From: Actinomycetota bacterium
Lineage (GTDB): Bacteria; Actinomycetota; Acidimicrobiia; Acidimicrobiales; CADCSY01
Length of the DNA: 63,986 nucleotides
Direction: 5' to 3'
NCBI GenBank assembly: GCA_016781135.1
Contig: JADDQY010000090.1
Location: 1-63,986 of the forward strand
Shown here: positions 1 through 15,692 of the stretch, piece by piece
Position numbering within the stretch: the first letter of the stretch is position 1
Layout: each line of letters begins with the position of its first letter
Position numbers and translations under genes: made by a program
Notes under the pieces: model-generated
The model's input: the letters and a program-made list of their open reading frames with translations, nothing else
The model's database searches: none
Told to the model about the DNA's origin: nothing

Positions 1-200
1 TCAGCTCCGCCTGAGACCTGATCAGCTCCGCCTGCGAGGCGACCACGGCTTCGAGGTCGGCAATGCGACGCTCGAGCTCCTCTGCCCAGGGCGCGTCGCT
101 TGCCATACACAAACTTTCGCGACCACCCCCCGCGACTGTGCTTACATCACTGGAATTTCTTCCGGGCTACCCCTCGCCCCGCCGGGACCTGAACAGTTAC
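1..200 (-). mobile_element. Left end of an IS66-family element (partial, runs off window) with transposase N-terminal coiled coil (ATG at 106)
   Basis: Minus strand from 200 reads GTAACTGTTCAGG, matching the GTAA-type IS66 terminus. ORF from 106: MASDAPWAEELERRIADLEAVVASQAELIRSQAEL, a coiled-coil start like IS66 TnpC/DUF6444. It directly abuts an IS256 fragment at 201. Confidence 0.6.
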
Positions 201-482
201 CAGGAACTGCACCTCGAGTCCTACCAGACCTTCGCCTCGGCCGACCTGCTCACCGCCCACACGGTGGCGGCCATGCAGGCCGGGCTGTCGACCCGCCGCT
301 ACGAGGGGCGCTCGGCCGGTGGGCGCAGAGTTCGAGGAGAGGTCGAGCTCACGTCGCGTTCGTCGGTCAGCCGGCGGTTCGTGGTCGCCACCGCCGAGCG
401 GCTGGCCGAGTTCCGCTCACGCCCCCTCGATGACGCGAAGTGGCTGGTCATCTTCGTCTACGGCTCCGACTTCGCCGGTGAC
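201..482 (+). pseudogene. IS256-family transposase internal fragment
   Basis: QELHLESYQTFASADLL..AAMQAGLSTRRY..SRSSVSRRFVVATAERLAEFRSRPL..WLVIFVYG resembles IS256 transposases. The expected first catalytic Asp (VDG) reads VYG. Both ends are truncated. Confidence 0.7.
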
Positions 483-495
483 ACGCCTCAACCGG

Positions 496-540
496 TCATA
501 AGCAGAGAGTTATGATTTCTGACTAAGTATTCACTTTACT
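496..540. promoter_or_regulatory. AT-rich cbbL upstream region with perfect inverted repeat TCATAA-N8-TTATGA; candidate CbbR/LysR-type operator
   Basis: Inverted repeat at 496-515 inside an AT-rich patch about 135 bp upstream of cbbL. It resembles the TNA-N7/8-TNA CbbR-type motif. Confidence 0.5.
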
Positions 541-650
541 CTGCGACCACCGCAGCCTAGGCTCTGGATTAGTATCCAGGACAAGCGTCAGACCCCGTAG
601 TGGGGAGTCCGAAACCCGGCCCAGACCGGGCTTCAGCCGAGGAGAACCGC

Positions 651-2084
651 GTGGCACAGAGTAACGGCAGTAACGGCAGTGGCGGCTACCAGGCCGGCGT
701 GAAGAAGTACGCCGACAACTACTGGACCCCGGATTACGTGCCGTTGGACACTGACCTCCTGGCCGTCTTCAAGGTGCTTCCCCAGCAGGGCGTGCCGCAC
801 GAGGAAGCGGCCGCGGCGGTGGCCGCCGAGTCATCCACCGGCACCTGGACGACGGTGTGGACCGACTACCTCACCGATCTCGACTTCTACAAGGGTCGGG
901 CCTACCGGATCGACCCGGTGAAGGACGACTCCGGCGCCTTCTTCGCCTTTGTCGCCTACCCGATGGACCTGTTTGAGGAAGGCTCGGTCGTCAACGTCCT
1001 GACCTCGCTCGTGGGCAACGTCTTCGGCTTCAAGGCAATCCGCAGCCTGCGCCTCGAAGACATTCGCTTCCCGGTGGCGTACGTGAAGACCTGCGGCGGC
1101 CCCCCCAACGGCATTCAGGTGGAGCGCGACCGCCTCGGCAAGTACGGGCGCGCGCTGCTGGGCTGTACGATCAAGCCCAAGCTCGGCCTGTCGGCCAAGA
1201 ACTACGGGCGCGCGGTCTACGAGTGCCTCCGAGGCGGGCTCGACTTCACCAAGGACGACGAGAACATCAACAGCCAGCCGTTCATGCGCTGGAACCACCG
1301 CTACGAGTTCGTGATGGAAGCGGTACACAAGGCCACCGCCGAGACGGGCGAGCGCAAGGGCCACTACCTCAACGTCACCGCGCCCACGCCGGAGGACATG
1401 TATGAGCGGGCCGAGTTCGCCAAGTCGCTCGGCGCCCCGATCATCATGCACGACTACCTCACCGGCGGCTTCTGCGCCAACACGGGTCTGGCGAACTGGT
1501 GTCGTCGGAACGGCATGCTGCTCCACATCCACCGCGCCATGCACGCGGTGATCGACCGCAACCCCATGCACGGCATTCACTTCCGGGTGCTCGCCAAGTG
1601 CCTGCGCCTGTCCGGGGGCGACCATCTCCACTCCGGCACCGTGGTCGGCAAGCTCGAAGGCGATCGCGAGGCCACGATGGGCTGGATCGATCTGATGCGG
1701 GAGTCCTTCGTGCCCGAGAACCGCAGGCGCGGCATCTTCTTCGACCAGGACTGGTCATCGATGCCCGGCGTCTTTCCCGTTGCCTCCGGAGGCATCCACG
1801 TCTGGCACATGCCCGCACTGGTGGCGATCTTCGGCGACGACGCCTGCCTGCAGTTCGGCGGCGGGACGCTCGGCCACCCGTGGGGCAACGCACCCGGCGC
1901 CCACGCCAACCGGGTAGCGCTCGAGGCCTGCGTGGAGGCACGGAACCAGGGTCGGGCGGTCGAACGCGAGGGTCGCGAGATCTTGACCGAGGCGGCCCGC
2001 CACAGTCCCGAGCTCGCGGTGGCGATGGACACCTGGAAGGAGATCAAGTTCGAGTTCGAAACCGTGGACAAGATCACCGCCTGA
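651..2084 (+). CDS. cbbL: RuBisCO large subunit, form IA
   Basis: [11 protein letters not shown] catalytic motif, [31 protein letters not shown] start at 651 follows GAGGAG (the ORF track starts at 600). Confidence 0.98.
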
Positions 2085-2167
2085 CCGCGCACTGGCCGCC
2101 GGTTCCATGCCCCCGGCGCCTCACCCCTCTGGCCCCGGAAGGAGAGGGCCCTAAAGGAGACATTGAC

Positions 2168-2506
2168 ATGCACATTGAACCCTACGGACCCACCCCCCGC
2201 CATGTGGAGACCTTCTCCTACCTGCCACAGATGACGCCCGAGCGGCTCCGCCACCAGATCGCCTACCTCATCCAGTCCGGCTGGGCCCCGGCCATCGAAC
2301 ACACCGAGCCCGAGAAGTCCCTCTCGAACTTCTGGTACCTGTGGGAGCTCCCGTACTTTGGTGAGCGGTCGGTGGACAGGGTCCTGGCCGAGCTCGACTC
2401 GTGCCACCGGGCCAATCCCGGTCACCACGTGCGCCTCCTCGGCTACGACAACTACATGCAGAGTCAGGGCACGGCCTTCATCGTCCACCGCGCTGGAGCC
2501 CGCTGA
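2168..2506 (+). CDS. cbbS: RuBisCO small subunit (carboxysomal form IA type)
   Basis: [53 protein letters not shown] 2168 follows AAAGGAGA. It lies in the 3' part of track ORF 1499..2506. Confidence 0.96.
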
Positions 2507-3055
2507 GAATGGGAAAGTACTGAGAAATGCGAATGTACGTGGTCCAGACCGCCGACAGCGGGGACCTGGCTGCGCTCCGAGATGCTGCCCGTGACGGCCG
2601 CGCCGCGGCGATGTCGCGGCGCCGGGCGCTCGCCGCCGGCCGGTCGGCTTTGGCGCCCGCGCACGAGCGGGTGCGCACCGGGTTCCGGGAGGCCGAGCTT
2701 CGTACTCCCGCAGCTGCGGTGGACGCGACGCCCCGCGCCGCTCCCAACGGTCAAGGGACGCCGAGCGGCGTGCAAGGGACTCCGGGGGGGACGGCGGTCG
2801 CGACCGACGGCGTGGCCGCCGCCCGCCTCGGCCGCGCCCTCTCCATGCAGCGACGCCGCCAGCTGTCCCAGGGCAAGCAGGCGCTGAACGGCGGTGGTGA
2901 CCGGACGGCGGCTGCAGCCGGCGCCGGCGCGCCGGTCTTCATCGTCCACCGCGGTGGAGGCCGCTGAGAATGGGAATGTACGCGGTCGACACCGCCGACA
3001 GCGCTGACCTGGCCGAGCTCGGAAATGCTGCCCGTGACGGTCGCGCCGCCGCGGC
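2472..3055 (+). repeat. Diverged direct duplication of the cbbS 3' end plus csoS2 5' start (copy 1 about 2472-2610, copy 2 about 2933-3055)
   Basis: cggccttcatcgtccaccgcgctggagcccgctgagaatgggaa versus cggtcttcatcgtccaccgcggtggaggccgctgagaatgggaa. Both continue tgtacg..accgccgacagcg..gacctggc..atgctgcccgtgacgg. Confidence 0.9.
2527..2967 (+). CDS. Short CsoS2-like protein with N-terminal motifs only (146 aa, two Rubisco-binding-type helices)
   Basis: Contains GRAAAMSRRRALAAGRSAL and GRALSMQRRRQLSQGKQAL (R-x5-RR N-peptide motif) and no [VI]TG repeats. Ends in a copy of the CbbS C-terminus (FIVHRGGGR). Confidence 0.7.
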   Translation: MRMYVVQTADSGDLAALRDAARDGRAAAMSRRRALAAGRSALAPAHERVRTGFREAELRTPAAAVDATPRAAPNGQGTPSGVQGTPGGTAVATDGVAAARLGRALSMQRRRQLSQGKQALNGGGDRTAAAAGAGAPVFIVHRGGGR

Positions 3056-3990
3056 GGCGCGACGTCGCCAGCTGTCCCAGGGCATGCAGGCGCTGAACGG
3101 CGCCGTCGGGTCCCCGGCCGCGGAGAACCTGCAGGCCAACGGCGCGGGAGCGCCGCCCGCCGCGGAGAACCTGGAGGCCAACGGCGCGGGAGCGCCCCCC
3201 GCCGCTCCCAACGGTCAAGGCGCGTCGAACGGCACGCAAGGGGCTCCGGGGGGGACCGACGGCGTGGCCGGCGCCCACCTCGGCCGCGCCCTCTCCGTGC
3301 AGCGCCGCCGCCAGCTGTCCCAGGGCAAGCAGGCGCTGAACGGCGGCGGGGCGCCGCCCGCCGGGGAGAACCTGCACGGCAACGGCGCGGGGGCGCCTCC
3401 CGCCGCTTCCAATGGTCAAGGGGCGCCGAACGGCGCGCAAGGGGCTCCGCAGGCGACGTCGGGCCCGACCAACGGCGTGGCCGCCGTCCACCTCGGCCGC
3501 GCCCTCTCCATGGAGCGCCGTCGTCAGCTGTCCCAGGGCAAGCAGGCGCTGAACGGCCACGGTGACCCGACGGCGGCTGCTCCCAACGGTCAAGGCGCCC
3601 CGAGCGGCGCGCAAGGGGCTCCGCAGGCGACGTCGGGCCCGACCAACGGCGTGGCCGCCGCCCACCTCGGCCGCGTCCTCTCCATGCAGCGCCGCCGCCA
3701 GCTGTCCCAGGGCAAGCAGGCGCTGAACGGCGACGGCGCACCGCCCGCCGGGGAGAACCTGCACGCCAACGGCGCGGGGGCGCCTCCCGCCGCTTCCAAC
3801 GGTCAAGGCGCGTCGAGCGGCGCGCAAGGGGCTCCGGGGGGGACGTCGGTCGCGAGCGACGGCGTGGCCGCCGCCCACCTCGGCCGCGTCCTCTCCATGC
3901 AGCGCCGCCGCCAGCTGTCCCAGGGCAAGCAGGCGCTGAACGGCGACGGCGCACCGCCCGCCGCAGAGAACGTCAACGGCGCGGGGGCGC
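2741..3990 (+). repeat. Imperfect coding tandem repeats (about 170-215 bp) forming the CsoS2 N-terminal motifs
   Basis: The core cctcggccgcg.cctctcc.tg.agcg.cgccgccagctgtcccagggcaagcaggcgctgaacggc recurs near 2825, 3278, 3491, 3665 and 3878. Confidence 0.9.
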
Positions 3991-5603
3991 CTCCCGCGGC
4001 GGAGAGCCTGCAGGTCGAAGGCACCGGCTCGGGTCGTGAGCAGGCCCGGGCTCGGCGCGCCGAGGCGAGCCGCTTCGGCAGCGCAGGGATCAGCAGGCCG
4101 CAGCGAGAGGGCCGGGTCACGCACCCACCCAAGGTCATCGTGTCTCCCACCCGCGGCGGCCAGCGGGTGACCGGGCTGGGGATCGGTCCGGGCGCGCGGG
4201 TCACGGGCGACGAGCCCGGCGCTGCGCTCCCGGTGTCGGGCACGCAGTACGTCGCGGCCGACGGGTCGGCCCCCGCGTCGGGCGCCGGGCCGAAGGTCGG
4301 CATGGTGCGCACGCCGCAGGGCCTCGTCGTCTCGGGCACCACGGTTCGCAACAAGGTGTCCATCACCGGTGACGAGGCCGGCGAGCACCTTCCCATCACC
4401 GGCGAAGCCGACCAGAAGTTCGACGACGACCTGACCCCACGCAGCGACGGCACCTTCCGTCCGGCGCAGTTCCCGCGCCGGGCCGACCCGCAGGGCGCGA
4501 CCGCCGTCGGCACGAGGCTGGGGCAACAGTCTCGAACGGCGGCTTCCAGCGGGGACGGCTCCTGGCAGCCGCTGGAGAACACCGACGGCGGGCTGGCCGT
4601 CACCGGCACGGTCGTCGGCCGCAGCGGGCGCGTCACCGGGAACGAGGCCGGCGCCTGCCGCCCGATCACCGGCGACCAGTACCAGCACCTCTCCTCCTAC
4701 TCCAGCGAGTGCGCCGGCACCGGTGGCGGTACCGCGCCGGGCGCGCACCTCAACCGGGCGCGTCTGGACCCGGCGACCGGCGGCAAGGTGACCGTGGCGC
4801 AGACCTGGGCGGGCCAGCTCATCACGGGTCCCAGCGTCGAGCACCGCCCCAACGCCACCGGCGGCGAGCCGGGTGCCTGCCGCCCGGTGACCGGCACGCC
4901 TTACCAGGGGCCATCCACCGTCTTCGGCTGGTGCGAGCCCGACGAGGGTGAGTCCGCGGCCCAGCGCCTCGAGTCCAGGCCGAATGGTGTGGCCGTGACC
5001 GGCGACGTCCCCATGCCCGCCGAGGCGGTCACCGGCACCGAGCGCGGCGAGGGGAAGAGCGTCACCGGGACGTCCTACTACGGCGATCTGCGGCCAGCGG
5101 AGCCAGCGGCCGACGACTGGGCCGGCGGGCGGGCCTTCCCGGTGGCTTTGGCCCGGCGCCTGGCCAGCGGGGAGAGCGACGACGCCGCCACGCAAAAGAC
5201 CGACGAGCCGGCGCCGTCCCCTTCCAGCGTGCCTGGCGGCATCACCGGGTCCTTCGCCATCGGCGAAGGCATGGTGACCGGCAACAACGAGTTCCTGTTC
5301 CGGCCCCGCCGGAACCGTGACGGCGAGCAACCGGCGGTCACGGGCGAGGGTCGCACCGAAGGGCGTACGGTCACTGGTTCCGCCTGGACGGCAAACGACC
5401 GGGTCACCGGCACCGAGGGCTACATCGCGGCCGGGCGCAACCCCAGCGAAGGCGGCGGCGGTCCCCACGGCTGGGCCGGCGCAGGCAGGTTCCGGGACCT
5501 GGCCATGCCCGCGAGGCCGCCGCGCGAGAACGTCACCGGCCGCTCCGGCGGGGGCGCGAAGGCGGCGGGACGCGTCACCGTCTCCGGCGGAGCCCAGGGA
5601 TGA
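2970..5603 (+). CDS. csoS2: Carboxysome assembly protein CsoS2 (full length)
   Basis: Six N-terminal R-x5-RR motifs, about five middle repeats (KV..T..G..VTG..VTGDEPG...VSGTQY), C-terminal VTG repeats and terminal VTVSGGAQG. GGAGG SD at 2956-2960. Confidence 0.95.
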   Translation: MGMYAVDTADSADLAELGNAARDGRAAAAARRRQLSQGMQALNGAVGSPAAENLQANGAGAPPAAENLEANGAGAPPAAPNGQGASNGTQGAPGGTDGVAGAHLGRALSVQRRRQLSQGKQALNGGGAPPAGENLHGNGAGAPPAASNGQGAPNGAQGAPQATSGPTNGVAAVHLGRALSMERRRQLSQGKQALNGHGDPTAAAPNGQGAPSGAQGAPQATSGPTNGVAAAHLGRVLSMQRRRQLSQGKQALNGDGAPPAGENLHANGAGAPPAASNGQGASSGAQGAPGGTSVASDGVAAAHLGRVLSMQRRRQLSQGKQALNGDGAPPAAENVNGAGAPPAAESLQVEGTGSGREQARARRAEASRFGSAGISRPQREGRVTHPPKVIVSPTRGGQRVTGLGIGPGARVTGDEPGAALPVSGTQYVAADGSAPASGAGPKVGMVRTPQGLVVSGTTVRNKVSITGDEAGEHLPITGEADQKFDDDLTPRSDGTFRPAQFPRRADPQGATAVGTRLGQQSRTAASSGDGSWQPLENTDGGLAVTGTVVGRSGRVTGNEAGACRPITGDQYQHLSSYSSECAGTGGGTAPGAHLNRARLDPATGGKVTVAQTWAGQLITGPSVEHRPNATGGEPGACRPVTGTPYQGPSTVFGWCEPDEGESAAQRLESRPNGVAVTGDVPMPAEAVTGTERGEGKSVTGTSYYGDLRPAEPAADDWAGGRAFPVALARRLASGESDDAATQKTDEPAPSPSSVPGGITGSFAIGEGMVTGNNEFLFRPRRNRDGEQPAVTGEGRTEGRTVTGSAWTANDRVTGTEGYIAAGRNPSEGGGGPHGWAGAGRFRDLAMPARPPRENVTGRSGGGAKAAGRVTVSGGAQG

Positions 5604-7183
5604 AGTCCCTGCTCCAGCCCGACGGACGCTGGCTCGCTCCCTGGGACCAGGCTGCGGCCTGGCCGCGCCCGGGCGCGGTGGCGACGGTGACGTCGCCGCC
5701 GGGCCAGCCGGCCCGGAATGTGGGGTTCGGGTTCAGCCTGCCGGCGGGTGGGCATCCGCTGGCCGAGCCGGCGCTCAGCGACGCCCTCAAGCAGCGAGCC
5801 GAGGAGATCGCGGCCGCCTTCGAGCTCATCGAACCCGTCCTGCGCCGGCTGGCACCGCGCCAGTTCGACGACGACTTCCCCGAGCAGGCGCACCGCGAGC
5901 TGGCCGACTCGCTCGGGGTCGACATCCCGGCGGCTGAGCTGGAGTCGTCCTGGAGCTCACCGCTGAACCTCGGCCGCATCCACGCCCGCTGCGTGCTCGG
6001 GACCTTCCGCAACCTGGTGGAGCGCGAGTTCGACCGGAACCTCGCACTGGTCGAGGAGGGCGAGAGCACCGAGGTGTTGATCCGGCGTTTCGGCTTCCAC
6101 GCGGTCGACATCACCGCCTGCGCCGACGGGCGCCTCGGGGGGGTGGTGGATTTCATCCTGCGGGTGCCGCCTGCGGTCGTGGTGTGGCACGACTCATATG
6201 CCGGCGCGATGTTCGACGTCGAGGATGCGTTGCACCGTTGGGAAGCGGTGGAGCTGCGACGCTGGCGCGAGGGCTGGCCGAACGACGCCAGCGAGCCCAC
6301 GCGCTACCTGAAGATCGGGCTCTACCACTTCAGCAGCGTCGACCCACGCCACCAAGGCTGTGCCGCATTCGGCAGTGACCAGGTGCGCGCCGCAACCGCC
6401 CTGCTGGCGCGGCTTCAGGAGCTCGAGGGTGCCGTCGAGTCCACCCAGTGCTGCGCGGCGAGCGTGGCCACGCTGCTCGTCGGGGTGGACACGGACACCG
6501 ACGCCATCCGCGTGCACGTTCCCGACGCCGCCGGTAAGACGGACGTGGACCGCTTCGTCTCCAGCGCCACGCTCTACGAACAGACGGCGAGCCTCGAGCG
6601 CGAGGCCGCCAAGGAGTTCATCCGCCAAGCGGTCGCCGACTGCGCCGGCGTGGACGCGGCCGACGCCGGAACCGAGGGCATGCGCTGGCTCTGCGGCTAC
6701 CTGCTGAAGAACAACATCGGCCAGGTCGATGCGGTTCGCGGCTGGAACGGCGGAAGGTACGCGGATTACGGCCACGCCGAGACGCTGATCGTGGCCGGCG
6801 ACGCGATCGACGACGTCCAACTGCGCAACCTCGTCTTTCAGGCGCAGATGGGCACGCTGGAAGTAGGTGCCGTCGACCTCGACGTCGGCATCGGGGTCCT
6901 CGCAAGGACGAATGCGCCGTACGGGCTTGCGGTGCCGGTGCTCGTGCACGTCGCCTACGACGAGCGCATCCCGGGCGCCAGGGCCGGGGCGCAAGCACGT
7001 GCTCGGCGCCTAGCCGCGGCGATCGAGACCCGGTATGCGGGTGCGGCCGGCCCTGCTGGCCTCGTCACCCAAGGGGTCGTGCGAGCGCGGGGCCGGTCGC
7101 GCCTAGAGGTGCTCGAGGCGGAGGACGACGGCCCGCCGAGCTCGCTCCCACCCGGAGCGCGACCCAAGGAGGCACAGCGATGA
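5600..7183 (+). CDS. csoSCA: Carboxysome carbonic anhydrase CsoSCA (CsoS3)
   Basis: GFHAVDITACADGRL, YHFSSVDP..GCAA, LLVGVDTDTDAIRVH, NNIGQ, GHAE. ATGA overlap with csoS2. Confidence 0.95.
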   Translation: MKSLLQPDGRWLAPWDQAAAWPRPGAVATVTSPPGQPARNVGFGFSLPAGGHPLAEPALSDALKQRAEEIAAAFELIEPVLRRLAPRQFDDDFPEQAHRELADSLGVDIPAAELESSWSSPLNLGRIHARCVLGTFRNLVEREFDRNLALVEEGESTEVLIRRFGFHAVDITACADGRLGGVVDFILRVPPAVVVWHDSYAGAMFDVEDALHRWEAVELRRWREGWPNDASEPTRYLKIGLYHFSSVDPRHQGCAAFGSDQVRAATALLARLQELEGAVESTQCCAASVATLLVGVDTDTDAIRVHVPDAAGKTDVDRFVSSATLYEQTASLEREAAKEFIRQAVADCAGVDAADAGTEGMRWLCGYLLKNNIGQVDAVRGWNGGRYADYGHAETLIVAGDAIDDVQLRNLVFQAQMGTLEVGAVDLDVGIGVLARTNAPYGLAVPVLVHVAYDERIPGARAGAQARARRLAAAIETRYAGAAGPAGLVTQGVVRARGRSRLEVLEAEDDGPPSSLPPGARPKEAQR

Positions 7184-7515
7184 AGATCTTCCGCGTCGAA
7201 GGCACGCTGGTCGCCACCGCCCGCATCGGCGGCCTCGAGAGCCACCGGCTGCTGGTCGTCCAGGACCGGAAGGGAGGCAAGCAGGTGGCGGTCGATCCCG
7301 TCGGCTGCAAGCCCGGCGACTGGGTGATCGCGTGTGGCAGCTCGGCGGCGCGCGACGCCGCCGGCAGCAAGGAGTACCCGAGCGACCTGACCATCGTCGG
7401 CATCATCGACTACTGGGACGAGGAGAGCGAGGAGCGGGCCGCCCCGTCTGCGAACGGTGAGGCGCGGTCTGCGGACGATAGGGCGCGGTCTGCGGGCGAT
7501 GGGGCGCGACGATGA
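7180..7515 (+). CDS. csoS4A: Carboxysome vertex pentamer CsoS4A with C-terminal repeat extension
   Basis: MKIFRVEGTLVAT..VAVDPVGCKPGDWVI..GSSAAR.AAG...PSDLTIVGIIDYW. Confidence 0.95.
   Translation: MKIFRVEGTLVATARIGGLESHRLLVVQDRKGGKQVAVDPVGCKPGDWVIACGSSAARDAAGSKEYPSDLTIVGIIDYWDEESEERAAPSANGEARSADDRARSAGDGARR
7440..7515 (+). repeat. 21-bp tandem repeat (about 3.5 copies) in the csoS4A 3' end
   Basis: cgccccgtctgcgaacggtga / ggcgcggtctgcggacgatag / ggcgcggtctgcgggcgatgg / ggcgcgacgatga. Confidence 0.8.
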
Positions 7516-7772
7516 AGATCCACCGCGTCGTCCGCGACCTCGTCACCACCGCTCGAACCCCCACGCTCCAAGCCAAGTCGCTGCGGGTGGTCGAAGACGA
7601 CAGCGGCGACCTGGAAGTGGCACTCGACTCGGTCGGCGCAAAGCCGGGCGACTTCGTCATCACCATCAGCACCTCGGCGGCCCGCCATGCCACCGGCGAT
7701 CCGAAGATCACCACCGACCTGACCATCGGGGGGATCATCGACCACTGGAGCGAGGAGCGCTGGCACGACTGA
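7512..7772 (+). CDS. csoS4B: Carboxysome vertex pentamer CsoS4B
   Basis: LVTT.R...L..KSLRVV....G.L.VA.D.VGAKPG.FV.T...SAARHA.G.....TDLTIGGIIDHW. Confidence 0.95.
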   Translation: MKIHRVVRDLVTTARTPTLQAKSLRVVEDDSGDLEVALDSVGAKPGDFVITISTSAARHATGDPKITTDLTIGGIIDHWSEERWHD

Positions 7773-7831
7773 CTCGGTCCAACCCCTTCACCCTGTAACA
7801 CCCGAACTCAACTCATCTACGGAGGAAACAA

Positions 7832-8167
7832 ATGGCCACCAACAATGGAAGTGACATTCCGGGCATTGCCCTGGGCATGATCGAGACCCGTGGGCTCGTC
7901 CCGGCGATCGAGGCTGCCGACGCCATGACCAAGGCGTCAGAGGTGCGGCTGATCGGCCGCCAGTTCGTCGGCGGCGGCTACGTCACCGTGCTGGTCCGTG
8001 GCGAGACGGGCGCCGTCAACGCCGCAGTCCGTGCCGGTGCTGACGCGTGCGAGCGCGTGGGCGACGGCCTGGCTGCGGCACACATCATCGCCCGGCCGCA
8101 CAGCGAGGTTGAGCAGATCCTTCCCGACGGTACCCGCGACCCCCAGTACTCCGGGGCGGTGAGCTGA
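7832..8167 (+). CDS. csoS1: Carboxysome shell hexamer CsoS1 (BMC-H)
   Basis: GIALGMIETRGLVPAIEAADAMTKA..VGGGYVTVLVRGETGAVNAAVRAGADACERVGDGL.AAHIIARPH. Strong GGAGGA SD. Confidence 0.98.
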   Translation: MATNNGSDIPGIALGMIETRGLVPAIEAADAMTKASEVRLIGRQFVGGGYVTVLVRGETGAVNAAVRAGADACERVGDGLAAAHIIARPHSEVEQILPDGTRDPQYSGAVS

Positions 8168-8193
8168 GCACAGGCGCCCAGCTCGGGCGGGGC

Positions 8194-8218
8194 GACGCCA
8201 GGCAGCCCGGCTGGCGTT
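8194..8218 (+). terminator. Possible stem-loop after csoS1
   Basis: gacgccag..ctggcgtt inverted repeat with no U-tract. It could be a stabiliser or attenuator. Confidence 0.3.
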
Positions 8219-8250
8219 GAGGATCCCCATTCACCGACGAGGAGAACCAG

Positions 8251-8526
8251 ATGACCACGGAACCCCGATGGCCGGAGGGCTGGACGGAGGTCGAGAAACC
8301 ATCGTTGCTTCACCGCCGCTTCGAGTTCGCCGCCTACCCCGAGACACGAGCCTTCCTCGACCGGCTCGCGGGCCTGTCGAAGGAGACCGGGCTCTATCCG
8401 GATCTGAGCTTCAGCCGGACACACGTCAACGTCACGGTGTATGGCTGGGGTGGAGCGGCCGTCGGCGCGGAGGCAAGGGAGTTCGCCGCCCGCGCCGAGG
8501 CACTCGCCAGCGTGGACGCAGCTTGA
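8251..8526 (+). CDS. Pterin-4a-carbinolamine dehydratase-like Rubisco assembly factor (acRAF)
   Basis: W......L.RRFEF..Y..TR.FLD.LA.LS...G.YPDLSF.RT.VNVT matches the cso-linked PCD-like family. Confidence 0.88.
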   Translation: MTTEPRWPEGWTEVEKPSLLHRRFEFAAYPETRAFLDRLAGLSKETGLYPDLSFSRTHVNVTVYGWGGAAVGAEAREFAARAEALASVDAA

Positions 8527-8527
8527 C

Positions 8528-8806
8528 GTGACCCCCGCCAAACGCGGCCCGGCCACCCCCGCGAGCCAGGGGCCGACGAGGGCGGCGGCGAAGGACAGCA
8601 CCCAAGAAGCTCCGACGGAGGATGCCAGTGGGGGCAGCCTCGGTGAGCGCATCGAGGAGAAGCTGGCCGAGCTGCTGGACCGCACCGAGGTGGTGGACTC
8701 GGCCCCTCCGACGGAGACCGGGCGAGTGGACCCTGAGGACCGGGCGACGACCCAGTCGCCAGGGCGATCTCGTCCGCTCCACCCGGAACGCGTGTGGCCG
8801 GACTGA
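8528..8806 (+). CDS. mcdB: McdB-like carboxysome positioning adaptor (92 aa)
   Basis: GTG start 1 nt after the acRAF stop, in the frame of track ORF 8441..8806. Basic N-terminus, disordered P/T/E-rich body, C-terminal LHPERVWPD ([IV]WPD signature). Its stop overlaps the next ATG. Confidence 0.75.
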   Translation: MTPAKRGPATPASQGPTRAAAKDSTQEAPTEDASGGSLGERIEEKLAELLDRTEVVDSAPPTETGRVDPEDRATTQSPGRSRPLHPERVWPD

Positions 8807-9804
8807 TGCTGCCTGGCCGCCGTCTACCCCTCGTCGGTCGTCCCGTGGTCGACGTGGCGGTCGGCGTGCTCCGCGCGCCCGACGGGCGCGTGTTGCTGGC
8901 AGAACGCAAGGCCGGCAGTGACGCGGCCGGCTTCTGGGAGCTCCCTGGGGGCCAGATCGAACCGGGTGAGAGCGCGGCCCAGGCCGCCGCGCGCGAGCTG
9001 CTCGAGGAGGTCGGCGTCCGCGCCCTCGAACTCGCGCCCTGGCGGGTCTACGAGCACGACTTCCCGGCCAAGCGGCTGCGGTTGCACTGGTTCCACGTGC
9101 GCCGGTGGTCGGGCGAGCCGAACGGCAGGGAAGGCCAGCGGCTGGCATGGGTGGACCCCGCCCGTCCGACGGTCGGGCCACTGCTGGCGAGCAACGAGCT
9201 CGCCTTCGCGACGTTGGCGCTCCCCGAGCTGGTGGCAGTCGCCCGGGTGAGCCGTGCGCCGGGCGCTCCTGACGAGCTGATGGCGAGGATGCCGTCGTTG
9301 GTGGCCGACGGCCTGCGGCTCCTGATCGTGCGAGCACTGGAGCTCGCGCCTGGTCAGCGCGTCCAGCTCACCCGCCGGCTGCGCCAGCTCAGGCGGGGGA
9401 CGGGGCTGCGCCTCCTCCTGTCCGGGACGGCGCTCGAGGCACGCCAGGCCGGTGCCTGCGGGTTGCACAGCAGCGCCGCCGCGCTGGCCGGCCTTACAGA
9501 GCGGCCGCCGACGCGCCTGTGGGCGGTGTCAGCTCACAACGCGCGGGACCTCGAGCGCGCCAGTGCACTGGGTGCCGACGTCGCCATCGTGTCGCCGGTT
9601 CTCCCCACGGCTTCGCACCCCACAGACCAGGCGCTGGGTTGGGACGGCCTGCAGGAGCTGGTCGCGGCCAGCCCGTTGCCCGTCTACGCCCAAGGGGGCC
9701 TGGGGCCTGGTGACATCGGCGCAGCGCGCTCTGCAGGGGCGCTGGGTGTGGCGGTCGACATCCGCCGCCTCTCGGGGTCAGGCGGCAATGGCACCACGCC
9801 GTGA
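8806..9804 (+). CDS. Nudix (MutT-like) hydrolase / thiamine-phosphate-synthase-like fusion
   Basis: Nudix box GGQIEPGESAAQAAARELLEEVG. C-terminal ThiE-like SAHN..L..A..LGAD..SPV.PT.SHP..PVYAQGG. TGATG overlap with the upstream gene. Confidence 0.88.
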   Translation: MLPGRRLPLVGRPVVDVAVGVLRAPDGRVLLAERKAGSDAAGFWELPGGQIEPGESAAQAAARELLEEVGVRALELAPWRVYEHDFPAKRLRLHWFHVRRWSGEPNGREGQRLAWVDPARPTVGPLLASNELAFATLALPELVAVARVSRAPGAPDELMARMPSLVADGLRLLIVRALELAPGQRVQLTRRLRQLRRGTGLRLLLSGTALEARQAGACGLHSSAAALAGLTERPPTRLWAVSAHNARDLERASALGADVAIVSPVLPTASHPTDQALGWDGLQELVAASPLPVYAQGGLGPGDIGAARSAGALGVAVDIRRLSGSGGNGTTP

Positions 9805-11150: not shown

Positions 11151-11470
11151 TCAGCGGAAGTAGTGGCGGCGGCTCACGTGGGTCTGGTGACAAAGAAGAC
11201 CCCGTGCCGGTCCTCGAGCAGGCGCCGGAGGCCCGTGACTAGCGACGGGACCTTGTCTTGGGGCACGACGGTGATGAGCATGGACAGGCTGGCACGGTCG
11301 TCGAACAGCGGCCGGCCCTGGTGGTGGCCGTGGTGACCGAACCCGGAGACGCCCGAGACGCCCGTGTAGCCGGTGCGCCGGCTCCGATGAAGAGATCTCG
11401 CACGGCTGGGACCTGGTCGCCGCCGACGACCTCGATCTTGGCCATGGGAGCCAGGCCTTCCCCAGCTCAT
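11151..11470 (-). pseudogene. P-II-like (SbtB-like) signalling protein, several frameshifts
   Basis: Stitched across frames: MAKIEVVGGDQVPAVRDLFIGAGA/TGYTGVSGVSGFGHHGHHQGRPLFDD..MLITVVP..LRRLLEDRHGVFFV/..THVSRRHYFR. The ATG overlaps the dabA stop. Confidence 0.72.
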
Positions 11471-14058
11471 CGAACCTCCAGCGATGCGTTGGTGTGATCC
11501 ACGCTGTCGTCGGCCGGGTACCACGTCATCCACGTGCCGCCCGGGCTGCGGATGGACCAGTGCTCGTCCCCGTGCGAACGGCCGGCCATGGTGATCCACT
11601 TCCCACCGATCAGTTCTCGGAGCACCTGGTGGCGCTGGATGATCGCCTCGGTGCGCTCGAGGGGCGCCTGGACGACCGCGAGCAGGCGCAGCGGTTCATG
11701 GATGCGCCGCTCTCCAACGCCCACTGCCTGCGCCGGGAGGCCGACCTGGAGGTCGCCGCCCTCGCCGAGGACGACGCCGATGCCGCCCACCGGGTTGTGC
11801 AGCGTCTTGTCTCCCGCGCCGAACTGGTCGGGGTCGACCGACGAGAAGTAGTACTGAGCGGAGATCCACTGGCCGACGATGAGCGGCGCGGTGAGGATCG
11901 TCTCCAGGGCGTCGCCGTCGCCATCGCCCTCGGCGTCGTAGGAGTGCAGGAACACGCGACATGCCAAGTCGAGTTCGGCGGTGATCGAGCGGGGTCCGAT
12001 GACGAACGCAGCATTGCCGGCGAGCCCCCACTCCGGACGCACCTGCGCCCAGTCGTGCCCACGGATCCGGACCTTCTTCGGATCTCCCGGGAGGCGCCCG
12101 GCGCGCTCGCGTGCGAGCCGTTCACCGGCCAGCGCGACGTCCCGCTCGAAGGCCGCGACCAGCCGTTCGTGGCTGTCCGGCACGGCCTCGCGGTCGAGAA
12201 CGGTCACTTCGTCGGAGACGGTGTCGTGCTGGGCGGCAACGAAGCGGGTGTCGTCGGGCACCATGATGCCTCGCTCTTCGAGGCCGGCACGGACCCCAGG
12301 GTCGTTGAGGATGGCAACTGCCACTCGGGCGCTTGGCCCACCGGGGGCGCCGCCGCACGCGCCGCAGTCATAGGACGATCCGTGCGGGTTGTTGACGTTG
12401 TGGCTGCCGTGCCCGCAGAGCACGATGAGCCGGGCGAAGCGGGTCAGGCCCATGGTCCGGACGATGCTCTCGGCGGACGAGGTCCGCTCCTCGAGCGCCA
12501 AGCCGGAGCTGTCGTCGTGTTCCGCCTCGACAGCCGGTCGTGTTTGCAGGGAGGCGACTCGGCGCGTCGTCAGTCCCGTCAGGCGACGCGCCAAGCCTGG
12601 TGCCAGCGTCCTGGCCGCGGCCACAGGACCCATGATGTAACCCGCCGCCTCGGCGAGCGCGAACGGACCGGCCAGGCTCCCTTTGGGGGCGTGGAAGGCC
12701 TCGTGTCCTGCGCCGGCGGCTCGCTGCGCTATGAGGTAGCCGAGGGCGTCGTCAGGGACGAGCGGCTGCTCGGCGACCTCGTGGTCAGCCGTCAGCAGCG
12801 GCGGGCAGCGCGGATGGCTCTCCGTCGACCCCAGCGGCCGCCAGCGCACGGGAACGCCGAAGAACCCTGCGAACCCGAGGGTGTCGTAGGGGCCGCACGC
12901 CTCCAGGTGCCGTCGCAGGCCCTCCGAGCGTGCGTCGATGCAGAAGGCCGCTTGCACGTCCGGCCGCTCGGCCGCCGGCCCGGGGTCCGGGCGGCTCAGC
13001 AGTCCCAGCAGACGATCGCGGAAGTTGCCCTCCTGCGCCTCGAGCCACATCGACTTCCGCACCGGCGGCGGCACCTGCTGCAGGACGCCACGCACGGCGG
13101 AGGTGACGAAGGGATCGTCGGAGGTGCTGCCCAGAGCGGCGAGCACCGCCGCCGCCCGGTGCTCGAGGAGGTTCTCGACCACCTGATCCTGGTCCTGCGG
13201 GGGCTGCTGGTCAGCGGCACCATGGGCCGCCGCTGCCGTTGCGGCCACCTGCGCGGCGAGCAGGTCCACGAGGCGCAACGGGGGACGATGGTGGTCGGGC
13301 GGAGCCCACTCGTCGTGCCAGCGCGCGTACCCGGCCCAGCCCGGAAGCCGGCCGAGGTGTTCGCGAAGGGCGTCGACGCGATCGCCGCCGACACCCAGCG
13401 CATCGAGGGAAGCGGCGAGTGCCTCGACCGGATGATCAGGTAGTTGCGCCAGCCACTGCATGCCGGTCGGGCCAGCGAGGCGCCGGAGCCGCCGGTCGTG
13501 TTGCGTGAGCTCTCGCCACGCACGGAAGAACCCGTGCTCGCGGCGGGGCATGGGCCACGGAACCCCGGCCTCGTCGACGAAGACTGCACACCACGCGGCC
13601 ACGAGCTGGCTCACCGCCCGGACGGTCTGGACATCCGTACGGCCGACCCGATCGTGGGCGGTGTCCCGGGGCTTGTCGTCCGGTCCCACGAGGAGGTCCA
13701 ATCGGACGATCTCCACCGCATCGACCGTTGGCTCCCCGATCTCGACGCTGGGCTGCGACGCGAGCTTCGAGTCGACTTCGATGATGGCACGCCGGAGATC
13801 AGCATCGGTGATGGCCCCGAGCGCGTGGGCCTCGCGGAACGCGGCGAGCGTCAGGTGGGTGCGTGCCCGCAACCACCGTCGGGCGACGGCGGCGGCGTCG
13901 TCGAAGGGCAGGTGCTGCAGGCCGAGGAGGGGATTGACCGCCACGAAGCTGGTCAGCGGCCAGAGCGGAGCGATGATCTCCGCCGCTTTGGAGACATCGG
14001 CGAGGAGTTCGGTGTGGCGGGCAGATCGTCCGCGGTGGTCGTCGTTTCGGTTGCTCAT
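11467..14058 (-). CDS. dabA: Inorganic-carbon transporter subunit DabA (DUF2309)
   Basis: IAPLWPL.SFVAVNP, Zn-site motifs FCIDARSE, LCGHGS and DCGACGG, DWAQVRPEWGLAGNA, FLHSYD, HEPLRL. Start ATG 14058 overlaps the dabB stop. Confidence 0.95.
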   Translation of the reverse strand: MSNRNDDHRGRSARHTELLADVSKAAEIIAPLWPLTSFVAVNPLLGLQHLPFDDAAAVARRWLRARTHLTLAAFREAHALGAITDADLRRAIIEVDSKLASQPSVEIGEPTVDAVEIVRLDLLVGPDDKPRDTAHDRVGRTDVQTVRAVSQLVAAWCAVFVDEAGVPWPMPRREHGFFRAWRELTQHDRRLRRLAGPTGMQWLAQLPDHPVEALAASLDALGVGGDRVDALREHLGRLPGWAGYARWHDEWAPPDHHRPPLRLVDLLAAQVAATAAAAHGAADQQPPQDQDQVVENLLEHRAAAVLAALGSTSDDPFVTSAVRGVLQQVPPPVRKSMWLEAQEGNFRDRLLGLLSRPDPGPAAERPDVQAAFCIDARSEGLRRHLEACGPYDTLGFAGFFGVPVRWRPLGSTESHPRCPPLLTADHEVAEQPLVPDDALGYLIAQRAAGAGHEAFHAPKGSLAGPFALAEAAGYIMGPVAAARTLAPGLARRLTGLTTRRVASLQTRPAVEAEHDDSSGLALEERTSSAESIVRTMGLTRFARLIVLCGHGSHNVNNPHGSSYDCGACGGAPGGPSARVAVAILNDPGVRAGLEERGIMVPDDTRFVAAQHDTVSDEVTVLDREAVPDSHERLVAAFERDVALAGERLARERAGRLPGDPKKVRIRGHDWAQVRPEWGLAGNAAFVIGPRSITAELDLACRVFLHSYDAEGDGDGDALETILTAPLIVGQWISAQYYFSSVDPDQFGAGDKTLHNPVGGIGVVLGEGGDLQVGLPAQAVGVGERRIHEPLRLLAVVQAPLERTEAIIQRHQVLRELIGGKWITMAGRSHGDEHWSIRSPGGTWMTWYPADDSVDHTNASLEVR

Positions 14059-15692
14059 GTCGATCGTGTGGCAAGCTCCACGTCCGGCCGAAGCTGGCGG
14101 GATTCTGGCACGGGCGCTACCCCGGTCGAACTGCCTCGGGTCGTCAACCGGGAGGCGACGGGCGCCGAGGTGAGCACGAGGGCGTACACCCGGCTGCGCA
14201 ACCTGCGCATCCGCTCCCCTGGAGTGAGCCAGACGACGGCGACCACAAGCGCGATCGCCGCGAGCGTCGCAACGAGGAGAGCGGAGCTGACCGGCTCGGC
14301 GACCGCGGCGGGAAGCGCGGGAGCGACGAAGGTCTCCACGGCGGTTAGCCCACCGACGTAGGCGAACACTCCGGCGGCGGCACCGAATGCCGCGGTTGCG
14401 ACCGCCGGGACGGGCCGGAACGGCGCCGAGCGCAGCCACCCATCGACGGCCCGGGCTGCCGTTGCCCACGCGAACACCGTCACGAGCACGCGCGCCGCCG
14501 TCGACAGGTGCGGGTGGATGACCAGGAATGCGGCCGAAAGTGCCGCGGCCGGCACGAGCAGCGCGACGCCCAGCCGAACGCTCCGGGCGACGACATGTGG
14601 GGCAGGGCGTTGCTCGTGGTGGAGATGGTCCGTTACCGCGCTGCCGGCCCCGAGGAACAGCGCTGCCTTGTACATCCCGTGCCCGACGACGTGGAGCAAC
14701 GCCGCGGCCAACGCTCCTATGGCCACCTGCACCGTCATGAACCCCATCTGCCCTGCCGTGGACCACGCCAGGTTCCCCTTCACGTCGCTGCGCACCAGCA
14801 TCACGGTCGTCGCGTACCAGGCAGTGACGGCACCCGCTGCGAAGGCCAGGTGCGTCGCTGCGGCCGACGACCCGAACACCGGAGCGAGTCGCACCAACAG
14901 GACGCCGGCGCCGTTGACCACGCCTGCGTGGAGCAGCGCCGACACCGGCGTGGGCGCTGCGATCGTGGCCGGCAGCCACTGGTGCACGGGTACGAGCGCG
15001 GACCGGGAGATGCCGGCAACGGTCAGGAGCACGGCGACCACCGACAACACGTTCCCACCGAGCACCGGGATAGACGCGTTGGCGAGTTCATTGGCGGCCC
15101 CGGCCGGCGAGCGGAGGTCGATCTCGCCGACGGAGACGACGGCGAGCAGTGTGGCCACCAGTAGCGCGCCGTCTCCCACCCAGAGGCTGCGCAGGGTCCG
15201 CCGGGCCGAGCGCCGCGCCGGTCGCCAGGTGCTCCGGTGGGTCACCAGCGCAGCCAACGCGAGGCCGGCCACGATCCAGGAGGCGCACAGCAGGCCGAGG
15301 GTGGCGGCGAAGGCCACCGACGTCGTCGCCGCTGTCAGCAGCGAGGCCAGTACGAAGAAGCGGCGCTCCCGAAGATCCCCCTGCAGGTTACGGCCGGCGA
15401 AGGACTGCACGACCAAGCCGACGCCGGTGGTGAGCAAGCCCAACAAAGTGGTGACGCGAGTTGCATGCAGGCCAACGAGCGCATCGCCATCGCCCCCCTC
15501 GACCACGGCTGCGACCGGTCCGCCCACAGCCACGACGACCGCCATGACGATCGCCGCGGCGAACGCGGCAGAGGCCGCTCGTACCGCCCATCGGGAGGAC
15601 CGCTCTCCGACGGGGCGCGCGACAGCGATCGCCGCGGCGGCGATCGCGGGCAGCGCGGGGACAACGATCAACAACGTCTCGGGCGGCGTCAT
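14055..15692 (-). CDS. dabB: Inorganic-carbon transporter subunit DabB (NuoL/ND5-like membrane protein)
   Basis: Multiple TM segments; SALVPVHQWLP...APTPVSALLHAGVVNGAG, DVKGNLAWST.GQMGFM, HGMYKAALFL. Coupled to dabA. Confidence 0.93.
   Translation of the reverse strand: MTPPETLLIVVPALPAIAAAAIAVARPVGERSSRWAVRAASAAFAAAIVMAVVVAVGGPVAAVVEGGDGDALVGLHATRVTTLLGLLTTGVGLVVQSFAGRNLQGDLRERRFFVLASLLTAATTSVAFAATLGLLCASWIVAGLALAALVTHRSTWRPARRSARRTLRSLWVGDGALLVATLLAVVSVGEIDLRSPAGAANELANASIPVLGGNVLSVVAVLLTVAGISRSALVPVHQWLPATIAAPTPVSALLHAGVVNGAGVLLVRLAPVFGSSAAATHLAFAAGAVTAWYATTVMLVRSDVKGNLAWSTAGQMGFMTVQVAIGALAAALLHVVGHGMYKAALFLGAGSAVTDHLHHEQRPAPHVVARSVRLGVALLVPAAALSAAFLVIHPHLSTAARVLVTVFAWATAARAVDGWLRSAPFRPVPAVATAAFGAAAGVFAYVGGLTAVETFVAPALPAAVAEPVSSALLVATLAAIALVVAVVWLTPGERMRRLRSRVYALVLTSAPVASRLTTRGSSTGVAPVPESRQLRPDVELATRST

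Follow-up and report, generated by a model that had tools for sequence, protein, structure and literature searches.

A separate N-domain-only paralogue of csoS2 in an actinobacterial carboxysome operon, attributed to an old duplication of the cbbS/csoS2 junction

The window analyzed here (63,986 nucleotides, nt; contig JADDQY010000090.1 of assembly GCA_016781135.1, order Acidimicrobiales) begins at a contig end of a 2.67-Mb draft genome in 133 contigs. Its first 8.5 kilobases (kb), on the + strand, form a cso operon, the gene set of an alpha-carboxysome. Here we describe an open reading frame (ORF) of this operon, ORF1, which lies between cbbS and csoS2 and encodes a small protein with two motifs of the kind found in the N-terminal domain (N-domain) of the scaffold protein CsoS2; we call it mini-CsoS2, and such genes in other genomes minis. 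An earlier interpretation, made from the sequence alone and called the sequence-only reading below, held that a duplication of the cbbS/csoS2 junction created this stand-alone N-only CsoS2. Our results agree with it: the doubling of the junction is conserved among relatives, and the paralogues group by type in a phylogenetic tree. The features on which the argument rests are the following.

600-2084, + strand: cbbL, Form IA Rubisco large subunit (PF00016, PF02788)
2168-2506, + strand: cbbS, Rubisco small subunit (PF00101, E-value (E) 5.7e-35), ending in FIVHRAGAR, stop codon at 2504-2506
2472-2624, + strand: junction copy 1 (cbbS tail, stop codon, start with a CsoS2-type N-terminus), from repeat search and alignment
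2509-2523, + strand: mini-ORF of four codons, MGKY and a stop, at the ancestral start position, read from the sequence; a gap in copy 2 of the alignment
2527-2967, + strand: ORF1 (mini-CsoS2), 146 amino acids (aa), isoelectric point 11.9, 21 Arg
2578-2658, + strand: motif 1 of ORF1, residues 18-44, a G-R-x5-RRR-x-L-x2-G-R-x-A-L helix followed by ERVRTGFRE
2806-2892, + strand: motif 2 of ORF1, residues 94-122, LGRALSMQRRRQLSQGKQAL, nearly identical to csoS2 repeats 2-5
2933-3067, + strand: junction copy 2, from repeat search and alignment
2935-2967, + strand: CbbS-like tail of ORF1, VFIVHRGGGR and stop, at the start of junction copy 2
2956-2960, + strand: Shine-Dalgarno sequence GGAGG of csoS2, 9 nt before the ATG at 2970, its position kept in 17 of 17 loci
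2970-5603, + strand: csoS2, complete, 877 aa (PF12288, E 1.7e-45)

A motif scan of the csoS2 product found five N-motifs, 21 [VI][TS]G triplets, four Cys and the C-terminal region; the protein also matches NF050159 and NF050161, both below the family cut-offs. Since the csoS2 downstream of ORF1 is complete, ORF1 is an additional gene and not a piece of a split one.

The repeat search paired positions 2472-2520 with 2933-2981 (92% identity, spacing 461 base pairs, bp) and 2526-2624 with 2969-3067 (83% identity, spacing 443 bp). Two 500-nt stretches that contain the unit of about 460 bp, 2440-2940 and 2900-3400, align with a mean column identity of 83%. The duplicated unit starts some ten codons ahead of the cbbS stop and ends in the linker that follows the second csoS2 N-repeat. 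The frame of the upstream copy continues through the copied cbbS tail and terminates at the stop codon copied with it. ORF1 sits behind the original csoS2 initiation region, with a Shine-Dalgarno sequence in the cbbS tail and a TGA-nn-ATG coupling, and csoS2 itself uses the second copy. Several details of the sequence-only reading were thereby recovered: the duplication of cbbS tail, stop codon and csoS2 start about 460 bp apart; the location of the csoS2 Shine-Dalgarno sequence inside the duplicated tail; the two endings (FIVHRGGGR in ORF1, FIVHRAGAR in CbbS) and the diverged N-termini, both as it had quoted them; and the completeness of the second frame as a CsoS2. In copy 1 the cbbS stop and the ORF1 start are set 18 bp further apart by a local tandem duplication particular to this genome: neither this insert nor the MGKY mini-ORF occurs in the 16 other mini-bearing loci, and a contig from an independent study carries the insert with no differences.

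We searched for ORF1 in 41 genomes (the source genome, G000, and 40 relatives). Four match, all with the order cbbS, mini, csoS2; they are three of the 11 sampled members of the genus and one genome from another genus. A scan of one genome per species gave 24 loci, of which 16 carry an intact mini between cbbS and csoS2. In six, csoS2 follows cbbS so closely that a mini remnant would not fit; two are cut by contig ends, and none has a disrupted mini. N-only csoS2 frames, which the sequence-only reading had suggested looking for elsewhere, are thus present in 16 of 24 related loci. Three of these 16 are the same genomes as in the 41-genome search, which leaves 17 non-redundant minis of 72-146 aa. 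L019, L007 and L012 were counted as duplicates of L006, L028 and L020. A large protein collection contained 198 matches of 80-256 aa to ORF1; of the 120 listed, nearly all of the top 85 or so align over 97-100% of ORF1, and wherever a source name is given it reads "hypothetical protein", the sources being metagenome bins of Acidimicrobiales or Actinomycetota. The family is narrow: a profile search of 1.84 billion cluster representatives yielded 47 proteins. That search returned only this actinobacterial family, CsoS2 proteins and one further protein, P0149, proteobacterial and cyanobacterial cso loci not having been surveyed for N-only genes. Beyond this lineage no mini gene was found: in an even sample of 401 genomes across the class, three have csoS2, and in the two that lie outside the lineage (G086 and G323) it is of another, shorter kind and is not accompanied by a mini.

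P0149 itself is a protein of 115 aa on a 1156-bp contig, with two canonical-looking N-motifs, an ERVRTG extension and no CbbS-like tail. It could represent either a fragment of a gene or an N-only protein from a different lineage; scanning metagenomes did not turn up its locus. Within the genus, only G000, G007 and G008 (three of 11) match ORF1 or the csoS2 N-domain, and G001-G006, G009 and G010 do not. These eight non-matching genomes are 71-98% complete, and the carboxysome operon looks patchy within the genus.

Across these loci, the junction between cbbS and ORF1 matches the junction between cbbS and csoS2 of mini-less loci. In the latter it is single and reads ...TTCA(T/C)(C/T)GT(C/T)CACCGCGC(T/C)GGAGCCCGCTGA-n3-ATGGG(A/C)ATGTA...; in mini-bearing loci the same junction is found twice, before ORF1 and before csoS2, the pattern that a tandem duplication leaves behind. 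A tree of the first 144 nt, from which the one-motif minis L032 and L036 were left out, has a branch with 100/99 support that splits 17 csoS2 5' ends, together with the mini of L023, from 14 minis, together with two Pseudonocardia csoS2 genes. Since the paralogues cluster with their own kind rather than with the partner in their own genome, the duplication is older than these lineages; the placement of the L023 mini hints at a later conversion or a second event. In a tree of cbbL, one branch with 100/97 support separates 15 mini-bearing from four mini-less loci, a topology compatible with a single gain or a single loss (loci without a usable cbbL, L020, L025, L026, L030, L031 and L035, were left out). 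In distant full-length CsoS2 proteins (P0138, P0143-P0146, P0157 and P0158; first 50 residues or so), the extension ALPPPxERVRTGFREAxLP comes after the first repeat. First repeat and extension stand in this order in ORF1 too (ALAPAHERVRTGFREAELRTP; window 2650-2700); the extension is missing from csoS2 in the same genomes and was deleted from the short minis. ORF1 thus keeps a first repeat of the ancestral type. We found no mention of the ERVRTGFRE extension strings in the literature. Taken together, these sequence comparisons give good support to the view that the cbbS/csoS2 junction was duplicated in tandem long ago, which placed an N-only CsoS2 paralogue, as a gene of its own, ahead of an intact csoS2.

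Contigs from elsewhere bear on the reality of the arrangement. Those of run X2, another sample of the study with the likely source, match 2411-2812 and 2896-3327 without a single difference; those of another study (X5) cover 2486-2595 with no differences, the 18-bp insert included, and 2883-2996 with seven differences. Each junction is joined to ORF1-specific sequence by independent contigs, and none of those listed spans both junctions together. Reads that collapse the duplication had been named as an outcome that would overturn the sequence-only reading; the contigs of these two other samples keep each junction separate. That reading had also taken the openness of both frames as an argument against an assembly artefact, which is weak, since G+C-rich DNA shows long ORFs in all six frames. 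The duplication is accepted here because it is conserved across genomes and recovered in independent contigs. We consider the architecture, the origin and the reality of the mini gene well supported.

Read from its start, ORF1 consists of a CsoS2-type N-terminus, the Arg-rich motif 1, a linker, motif 2, a short spacer, the copy of the CbbS tail and the stop codon. The protein matches the csoS2 N-domain (E 4e-26), and the repeat copy that holds motif 2 (2729-2931) shares 78-85% of its positions with the copies at 3394, 3568 and 3781 and 64% with the one at 3181. AlphaFold2, run on an alignment of 32 rows, predicted helices at residues 11-42 and 93-121, with per-residue confidence (pLDDT) block values of 63-88 (77-88 for the motif 1 helix, 11-42), and values below 50 for the remainder; in the tail, pLDDT is below 50 at 143-146, with block means of 45-49 over 121-146. 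Motif scan and model therefore bear out the description of ORF1 as a protein of 146 aa with two Arg-rich helices and no shell-binding repeats. ORF1 contains two N-peptide repeats, at least two being expected of a CsoS2 (two motifs are found in 15 of the 17 non-redundant minis). It has no [VI][TS]G run, the middle-region feature of CsoS2 (PF12288-type) that its csoS2 neighbour does have, and no C-terminal shell-binding region, the protein stopping 24 residues past motif 2 in the CbbS-tail copy. With two of the three defining features absent, ORF1 is not filed as a CsoS2, though it is a paralogue of the N-domain. It matched no Pfam family at E of at most 0.01 and no NCBIfam family at E of at most 1. 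A sequence search of the Protein Data Bank gave only chance-level matches for the whole protein (flagellins, E of at least 0.08) and none for motif 2 alone, and a protein atlas search gave no usable match.

The mini products, of 72-146 aa, are very basic and for the most part disordered, with linkers of about 10 to about 50 residues. Two-motif forms are found in most lineages; L032, L036 and P0134 have one motif and P0086 has three. Four minis (P0086, 207 aa; P0090, 151 aa; P0128, 130 aa; and L023 at 3688-3999) have an N-terminus and first motif of the csoS2 type, yet a CbbS-like tail, which suggests repeated conversion or re-duplication between mini and csoS2.

To quantify constraint we used pN/pS, the ratio of nonsynonymous to synonymous differences per site. 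Pooled over all pairs of the 17 minis, it is 0.66 in the frame of ORF1 versus 1.13 and 1.22 in the other frames; by region it is 0.29 in motif 1, 0.52 in motif 2, 0.88 in the N-terminus, 1.13 in the linker, 0.65 in the spacer and 0.79 in the tail. Pooled benchmarks from the same loci are 0.34 for cbbS and 0.72 for the first repeat of csoS2. In eight non-overlapping pairs (L024 being unpaired), the two motifs together have a pN/pS of 0.32 (59 nonsynonymous and 77 synonymous differences; binomial p 2.8e-11 against neutrality) and the rest of ORF1 0.82 (p 0.12), the two parts differing with a Fisher p of 8.7e-6. Motif 1 alone gives 0.18 (15 nonsynonymous and 40 synonymous differences; p 6e-10), motif 2 0.44 (p 2.7e-4) and the CbbS-like tail 0.91 (p 0.46). 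The pattern points to purifying selection on the ORF1 protein that is limited to the two motifs, with linker and tail near neutral. Gene conversion cannot account for the conservation of motif 1, which is unlike any csoS2 repeat of the genome it sits in. In 15 of 15 two-motif forms, every insertion or deletion from motif 1 through motif 2 to the tail preserves the reading frame.

Two other parts of the protein were considered as functional elements. ERVRTGFRE was rejected for now: residues 45-60 have a pN/pS of about 2, from few sites in nine long forms, and the short forms do without the segment. The CbbS-like tail was rejected as a functional mimic of the small subunit, for it shows no constraint at the protein level and is unstructured in the model. 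Its F/L, I/V/T and H/Y/R/L positions vary freely, and the letters CGC GGT GGA G, which are the Shine-Dalgarno region of csoS2, are nearly invariant, third codon positions included. Being neutral, predicted unstructured and overlapped by the csoS2 Shine-Dalgarno sequence, the tail is most simply seen as a passenger of the duplication, a by-product presumably kept for carrying the ribosome-binding site of csoS2. Small variations affect the true CbbS ends as well: the cbbS tails of L021 and L028 have RGGAR (GGT), as in the mini tail, and not RAGAR (GCT), which hints at conversion between the junction copies, and in L023, L026 and L027 CbbS has a C-terminal extension of about 10-13 residues after FIVHRAG.

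What the two motifs would bind is suggested by work on Halothiobacillus neapolitanus. According to passages of 10.1101/708164, an N-peptide of its CsoS2 lies as a helix in a groove formed by two CbbL subunits (of different dimers) and one CbbS, with R3, R9, R10, G17 and K18 contacting CbbL D26, D69, Y72, F346 and D360 and CbbS D94 and Y96. The same passages report that [N1-N2]-GFP binds Rubisco with a dissociation constant (KD) of 75 nM at 20 mM NaCl, that binding of a single N-peptide was undetectable, and that NTD-GFP demixes with Rubisco; the statement in the sequence-only reading that N-peptides condense Rubisco agrees with the latter. CbbL of the window aligns without gaps to the H. neapolitanus protein (1svd/6uew, offset +24), with D26, D69, F346 and D360 identical and F in place of Y72, and CbbS keeps D94 and Y96 when compared with 1svd_M. 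Six of the seven contact residues are thus identical and the seventh is a Y to F change, and we count the binding surface as retained; in relatives, CbbS position 96 is Y or F. On the side of ORF1, motif 2 reads G-R-x5-RRR-x4-G-K and motif 1 G-R-x5-RRR-x4-G-R, both keeping the Arg cluster, the L and the A-L. From this correspondence, binding of ORF1 to Rubisco is a strong inference, and the most likely product of the gene would be a basic, disordered, two-sticker Rubisco binder without a shell anchor. Because ORF1 lies behind the original csoS2 initiation region, its translation is expected to resemble that of csoS2 in relatives lacking a mini. A weak hint of transcription comes from two RNA libraries, X15 and X16, whose contigs, only about 90% alike, lie over 2533-2999; stretches without cover carry no meaning.

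We propose the following sequence of events and role. An old tandem duplication copied the stretch from the end of cbbS through the second csoS2 N-repeat, the upstream copy becoming an N-only gene. Its protein would bind the CsoS2 N-peptide groove of the L8S8 Rubisco and, having no shell anchor, would act on the cargo alone. It could then serve as an extra soluble linker that helps to condense or pack Rubisco, a gene-encoded counterpart of the short scaffold forms CsoS2A and CcmM35 described below; alternatively, it could tune the number of Rubisco sites left free for the shell-tethered CsoS2. As a whole, this explanation (an old duplication, a selected two-motif paralogue, a cargo-only Rubisco binder acting as linker or tuner) seems to us probable, and the best available.

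Several observations weigh against it. More than half of ORF1 evolves about neutrally, and conversion from csoS2 repeats could mimic the constraint seen on motif 2. Six of the 22 informative loci, as well as G086 and G323, manage without a mini gene. In this genome, the 18-bp insert and the four-codon mini-ORF ahead of ORF1 may reduce its translation. The motifs of ORF1 are one residue shorter between RR and G than in the H. neapolitanus numbering, a spacing shared by all five cognate csoS2 repeats (an N-repeat of canonical spacing was seen in G323), and motif 1 has R at the K18 position. Finally, the single-motif forms L032, L036 and P0134 should, by the published data, bind Rubisco very weakly, and because of such forms cross-linking cannot be the universal role. 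The "bivalent Rubisco linker" of the sequence-only reading is accordingly not universal, one- and three-motif forms occurring beside the two-motif ones. A complex prediction of CbbL, CbbS and ORF1 residues 12-48 (score 0.00) is evidence neither for nor against binding; it was run without controls and with one CbbL, whereas the groove needs two CbbL and CbbS.

A more specific version of the proposal can be put forward tentatively. In it, mini-CsoS2 would be a dedicated two-sticker Rubisco condenser that is packaged with the cargo and sets the luminal packing density or the carboxysome size independently of the shell-tethered CsoS2, with sticker number (one to three) and linker length as a fast-evolving tuning knob. 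The ancestral first repeat with its ERVRTGFRE would survive only in the mini, the first repeat of csoS2 having been overwritten, so that the ancestral N-domain would now be divided between two genes.

The rival that survives best, although we hold it to be rather unlikely, is that the mini blocks sites: it would wrap around one Rubisco, by both motifs or, in one-motif forms, by the single one, and compete with csoS2 and the CsoSCA N-peptide for the eight sites, delaying aggregation or setting the ratio of scaffold to cargo. The natural one-motif minis would suit such a role, as would linkers of about 10 to about 50 residues that evolve neutrally. Passages of 10.1101/708164 describe [N1-N2]-GFP as modelled on two of the eight sites of one Rubisco, and those of PMC9314367 discuss wrapping around, as well as bridging, in native carboxysomes for CsoS2 itself. 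However, encapsulation would be expected to suffer from a blocker whose dose is not tightly set, most minis have two motifs (15 of 17), and the N-domain alone demixes with Rubisco in vitro (10.1101/708164, in the same passages).

It is less likely again that the gene is a functionless by-product, the duplication persisting only because its second copy bears the ribosome-binding site and start of csoS2. The constraint on motif 1 (0.18, p 6e-10) and motif 2 (0.44) speaks against this, as does the comparison of the pooled values, in which both motifs are tighter than the first repeat of csoS2 and motif 1 is close to cbbS. The frame-keeping length changes and the lack of any disrupted copy among 16 are further difficulties, and deletion between direct repeats that are 83-92% alike and lie 460 bp apart ought to happen readily; the gene has nevertheless persisted across lineages with minis only about 50-85% identical to one another. 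What the by-product explanation does account for is the near-neutral linker, N-terminus and tail (pN/pS 0.6-1.1), the decay or deletion of the ancestral ERVRTGFRE segment in the minis, their varying number of motifs and the six of 22 informative loci without a mini; moreover, open frames are cheap in G+C-rich DNA.

Recoding, by stop read-through or frameshift, might instead fuse ORF1 to csoS2, the product being an extended CsoS2 with seven N-motifs. No stop interrupts the csoS2 frame upstream as far as 2901, which makes it overlap the 3' end of ORF1, and in L018 and L021 the mini and csoS2 are in the same frame with TGA and one codon between them. The spacer from the ORF1 stop to the csoS2 ATG is, however, 1, 2 or 3 nt depending on the genome, so that the frame relation is not conserved and a conserved fusion is unlikely; the strong Shine-Dalgarno sequence and ATG of csoS2 are conserved, and no slippery heptamer was seen by eye in 2901-2967, the script scan having covered csoS2 from 2970 on. 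We regard this explanation as very improbable. An assembly artefact, that is, a mis-joined or falsely expanded repeat in a metagenome-assembled genome, could draw on the 133-contig draft, the start of the window at a contig end and the lack of a single listed contig across both junctions, but is for practical purposes refuted by the same arrangement, in diverged sequence, in 16 further genomes from many projects, by the contigs of two other samples that tie each junction to ORF1-specific sequence, and by the 8-17% of positions at which the copies differ.

Compared with known systems, the proposed cargo-only binder is closest to the N-domain of CsoS2 in H. neapolitanus: ORF1 is its sequence paralogue, is encoded in the same operon, has Arg-rich helical motifs with disordered linkers and faces conserved Rubisco contacts. 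It differs in being a gene of its own without middle and C-terminal regions, in having one to three motifs as against two or more in the full scaffold, and in its details (a motif one residue shorter from RR to GK, R for K in motif 1, the CbbS-tail end). EPYC1, the Rubisco linker of the algal pyrenoid, is likewise disordered and basic, with repeated short helical Rubisco-binding stickers and no compartment anchor; it is a eukaryotic protein of unrelated sequence that has five stickers and binds the small subunit. CcmM35, the short form of beta-carboxysomal CcmM (M35/M38), arises by internal initiation within one gene and is made of folded small-subunit-like (SSUL) domains. ORF1, in contrast, is a duplicated gene with short helical peptides and no SSUL domain: its likeness to CbbS is confined to the nine-residue tail (the final 9-10 positions), which the model leaves unstructured, and PF00101 gives no match. 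The likeness to CcmM35 lies in a cargo-only linker, made up solely of Rubisco-binding modules, standing beside a full-length, shell-connected form, as passages of PMC4499774 describe it.

CsoS2A, the short H. neapolitanus isoform, is described in literature passages as a product of -1 programmed ribosomal frameshifting, with 570 aa comprising the N-domain and most of the middle region; the sequence-only reading had likewise named -1 frameshifting as the source of short and long isoforms. Like ORF1, CsoS2A is a second scaffold form without a shell anchor from the same operon, thought in these passages to act on luminal Rubisco. It is recoded from the same gene, whereas ORF1 is a separate upstream ORF with N-motifs only and does not arise from a -1 frameshift at a slippery site of the middle region. 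A script scan of the csoS2 of the window found no in-frame XXXYYYZ heptamer in the middle region, and four in all, each in an N-domain linker. The CsoSCA N-terminal peptide is part of an enzyme, monovalent per chain and not a CsoS2 paralogue. It resembles ORF1 as a short peptide outside CsoS2 that binds Rubisco for encapsulation (PMC10614612).

As the sequence-only reading had supposed, the architecture appears to be undescribed: our literature search found no description of a separate N-only csoS2 gene. Surveys of 165 and 231 CsoS2 sequences (PMC4499774, 10.1101/708164) describe, in the passages compared, full-length proteins only; their supplementary tables, which might list short ones, were outside the comparison. 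To frameshifting (CsoS2A) and internal initiation (CcmM35), gene duplication would add a third way for a genome to yield a cargo-only form of the scaffold. Passages of 10.1101/708164 and PMC9314367 present as still debated whether the CsoS2 N-domain cross-links many Rubiscos or wraps one, and why a second, anchor-less isoform exists. Here evolution seems to have excised the N-domain as a gene of its own and kept it under selection across an actinobacterial lineage, and the natural minis with one, two or three stickers and variable linkers offer a ready series on the effects of valency and linker length in Rubisco condensation and carboxysome size. At about 100-146 aa, they are also very small natural building blocks with which Rubisco condensates or carboxysomes could be engineered in heterologous hosts.

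Downstream of csoS2 the operon continues with the following genes, all assigned by Pfam.

5600-7183, + strand: csoSCA
7180-7515, + strand: csoS4A
7512-7772, + strand: csoS4B
7832-8167, + strand: csoS1
8251-8526, + strand: pterin-4a-dehydratase-like gene

On the + strand from 1 to 9000, we found no terminator-like site. In three other loci csoS2 is split over two overlapping frames (L037 at 3998-6080, with a run of N; L038 at 3998-5877; L023 at 3947-6482), which could reflect a frameshift, an assembly error or recoding. Directly 3' of the cso operon (8794-9804), the window encodes a fusion of a NUDIX domain with a thiamine-phosphate-synthase-like (TMP-TENI) domain. About 3 kb from the operon, on the - strand at 11470-15692, lie a DabA gene (PF10070, E 1e-237) and a gene for a DabB-like, proton-antiporter-type membrane subunit; with an inorganic-carbon pump of the DabA/DabB type so close to the cso operon, the locus encodes a full CO2-concentrating mechanism.

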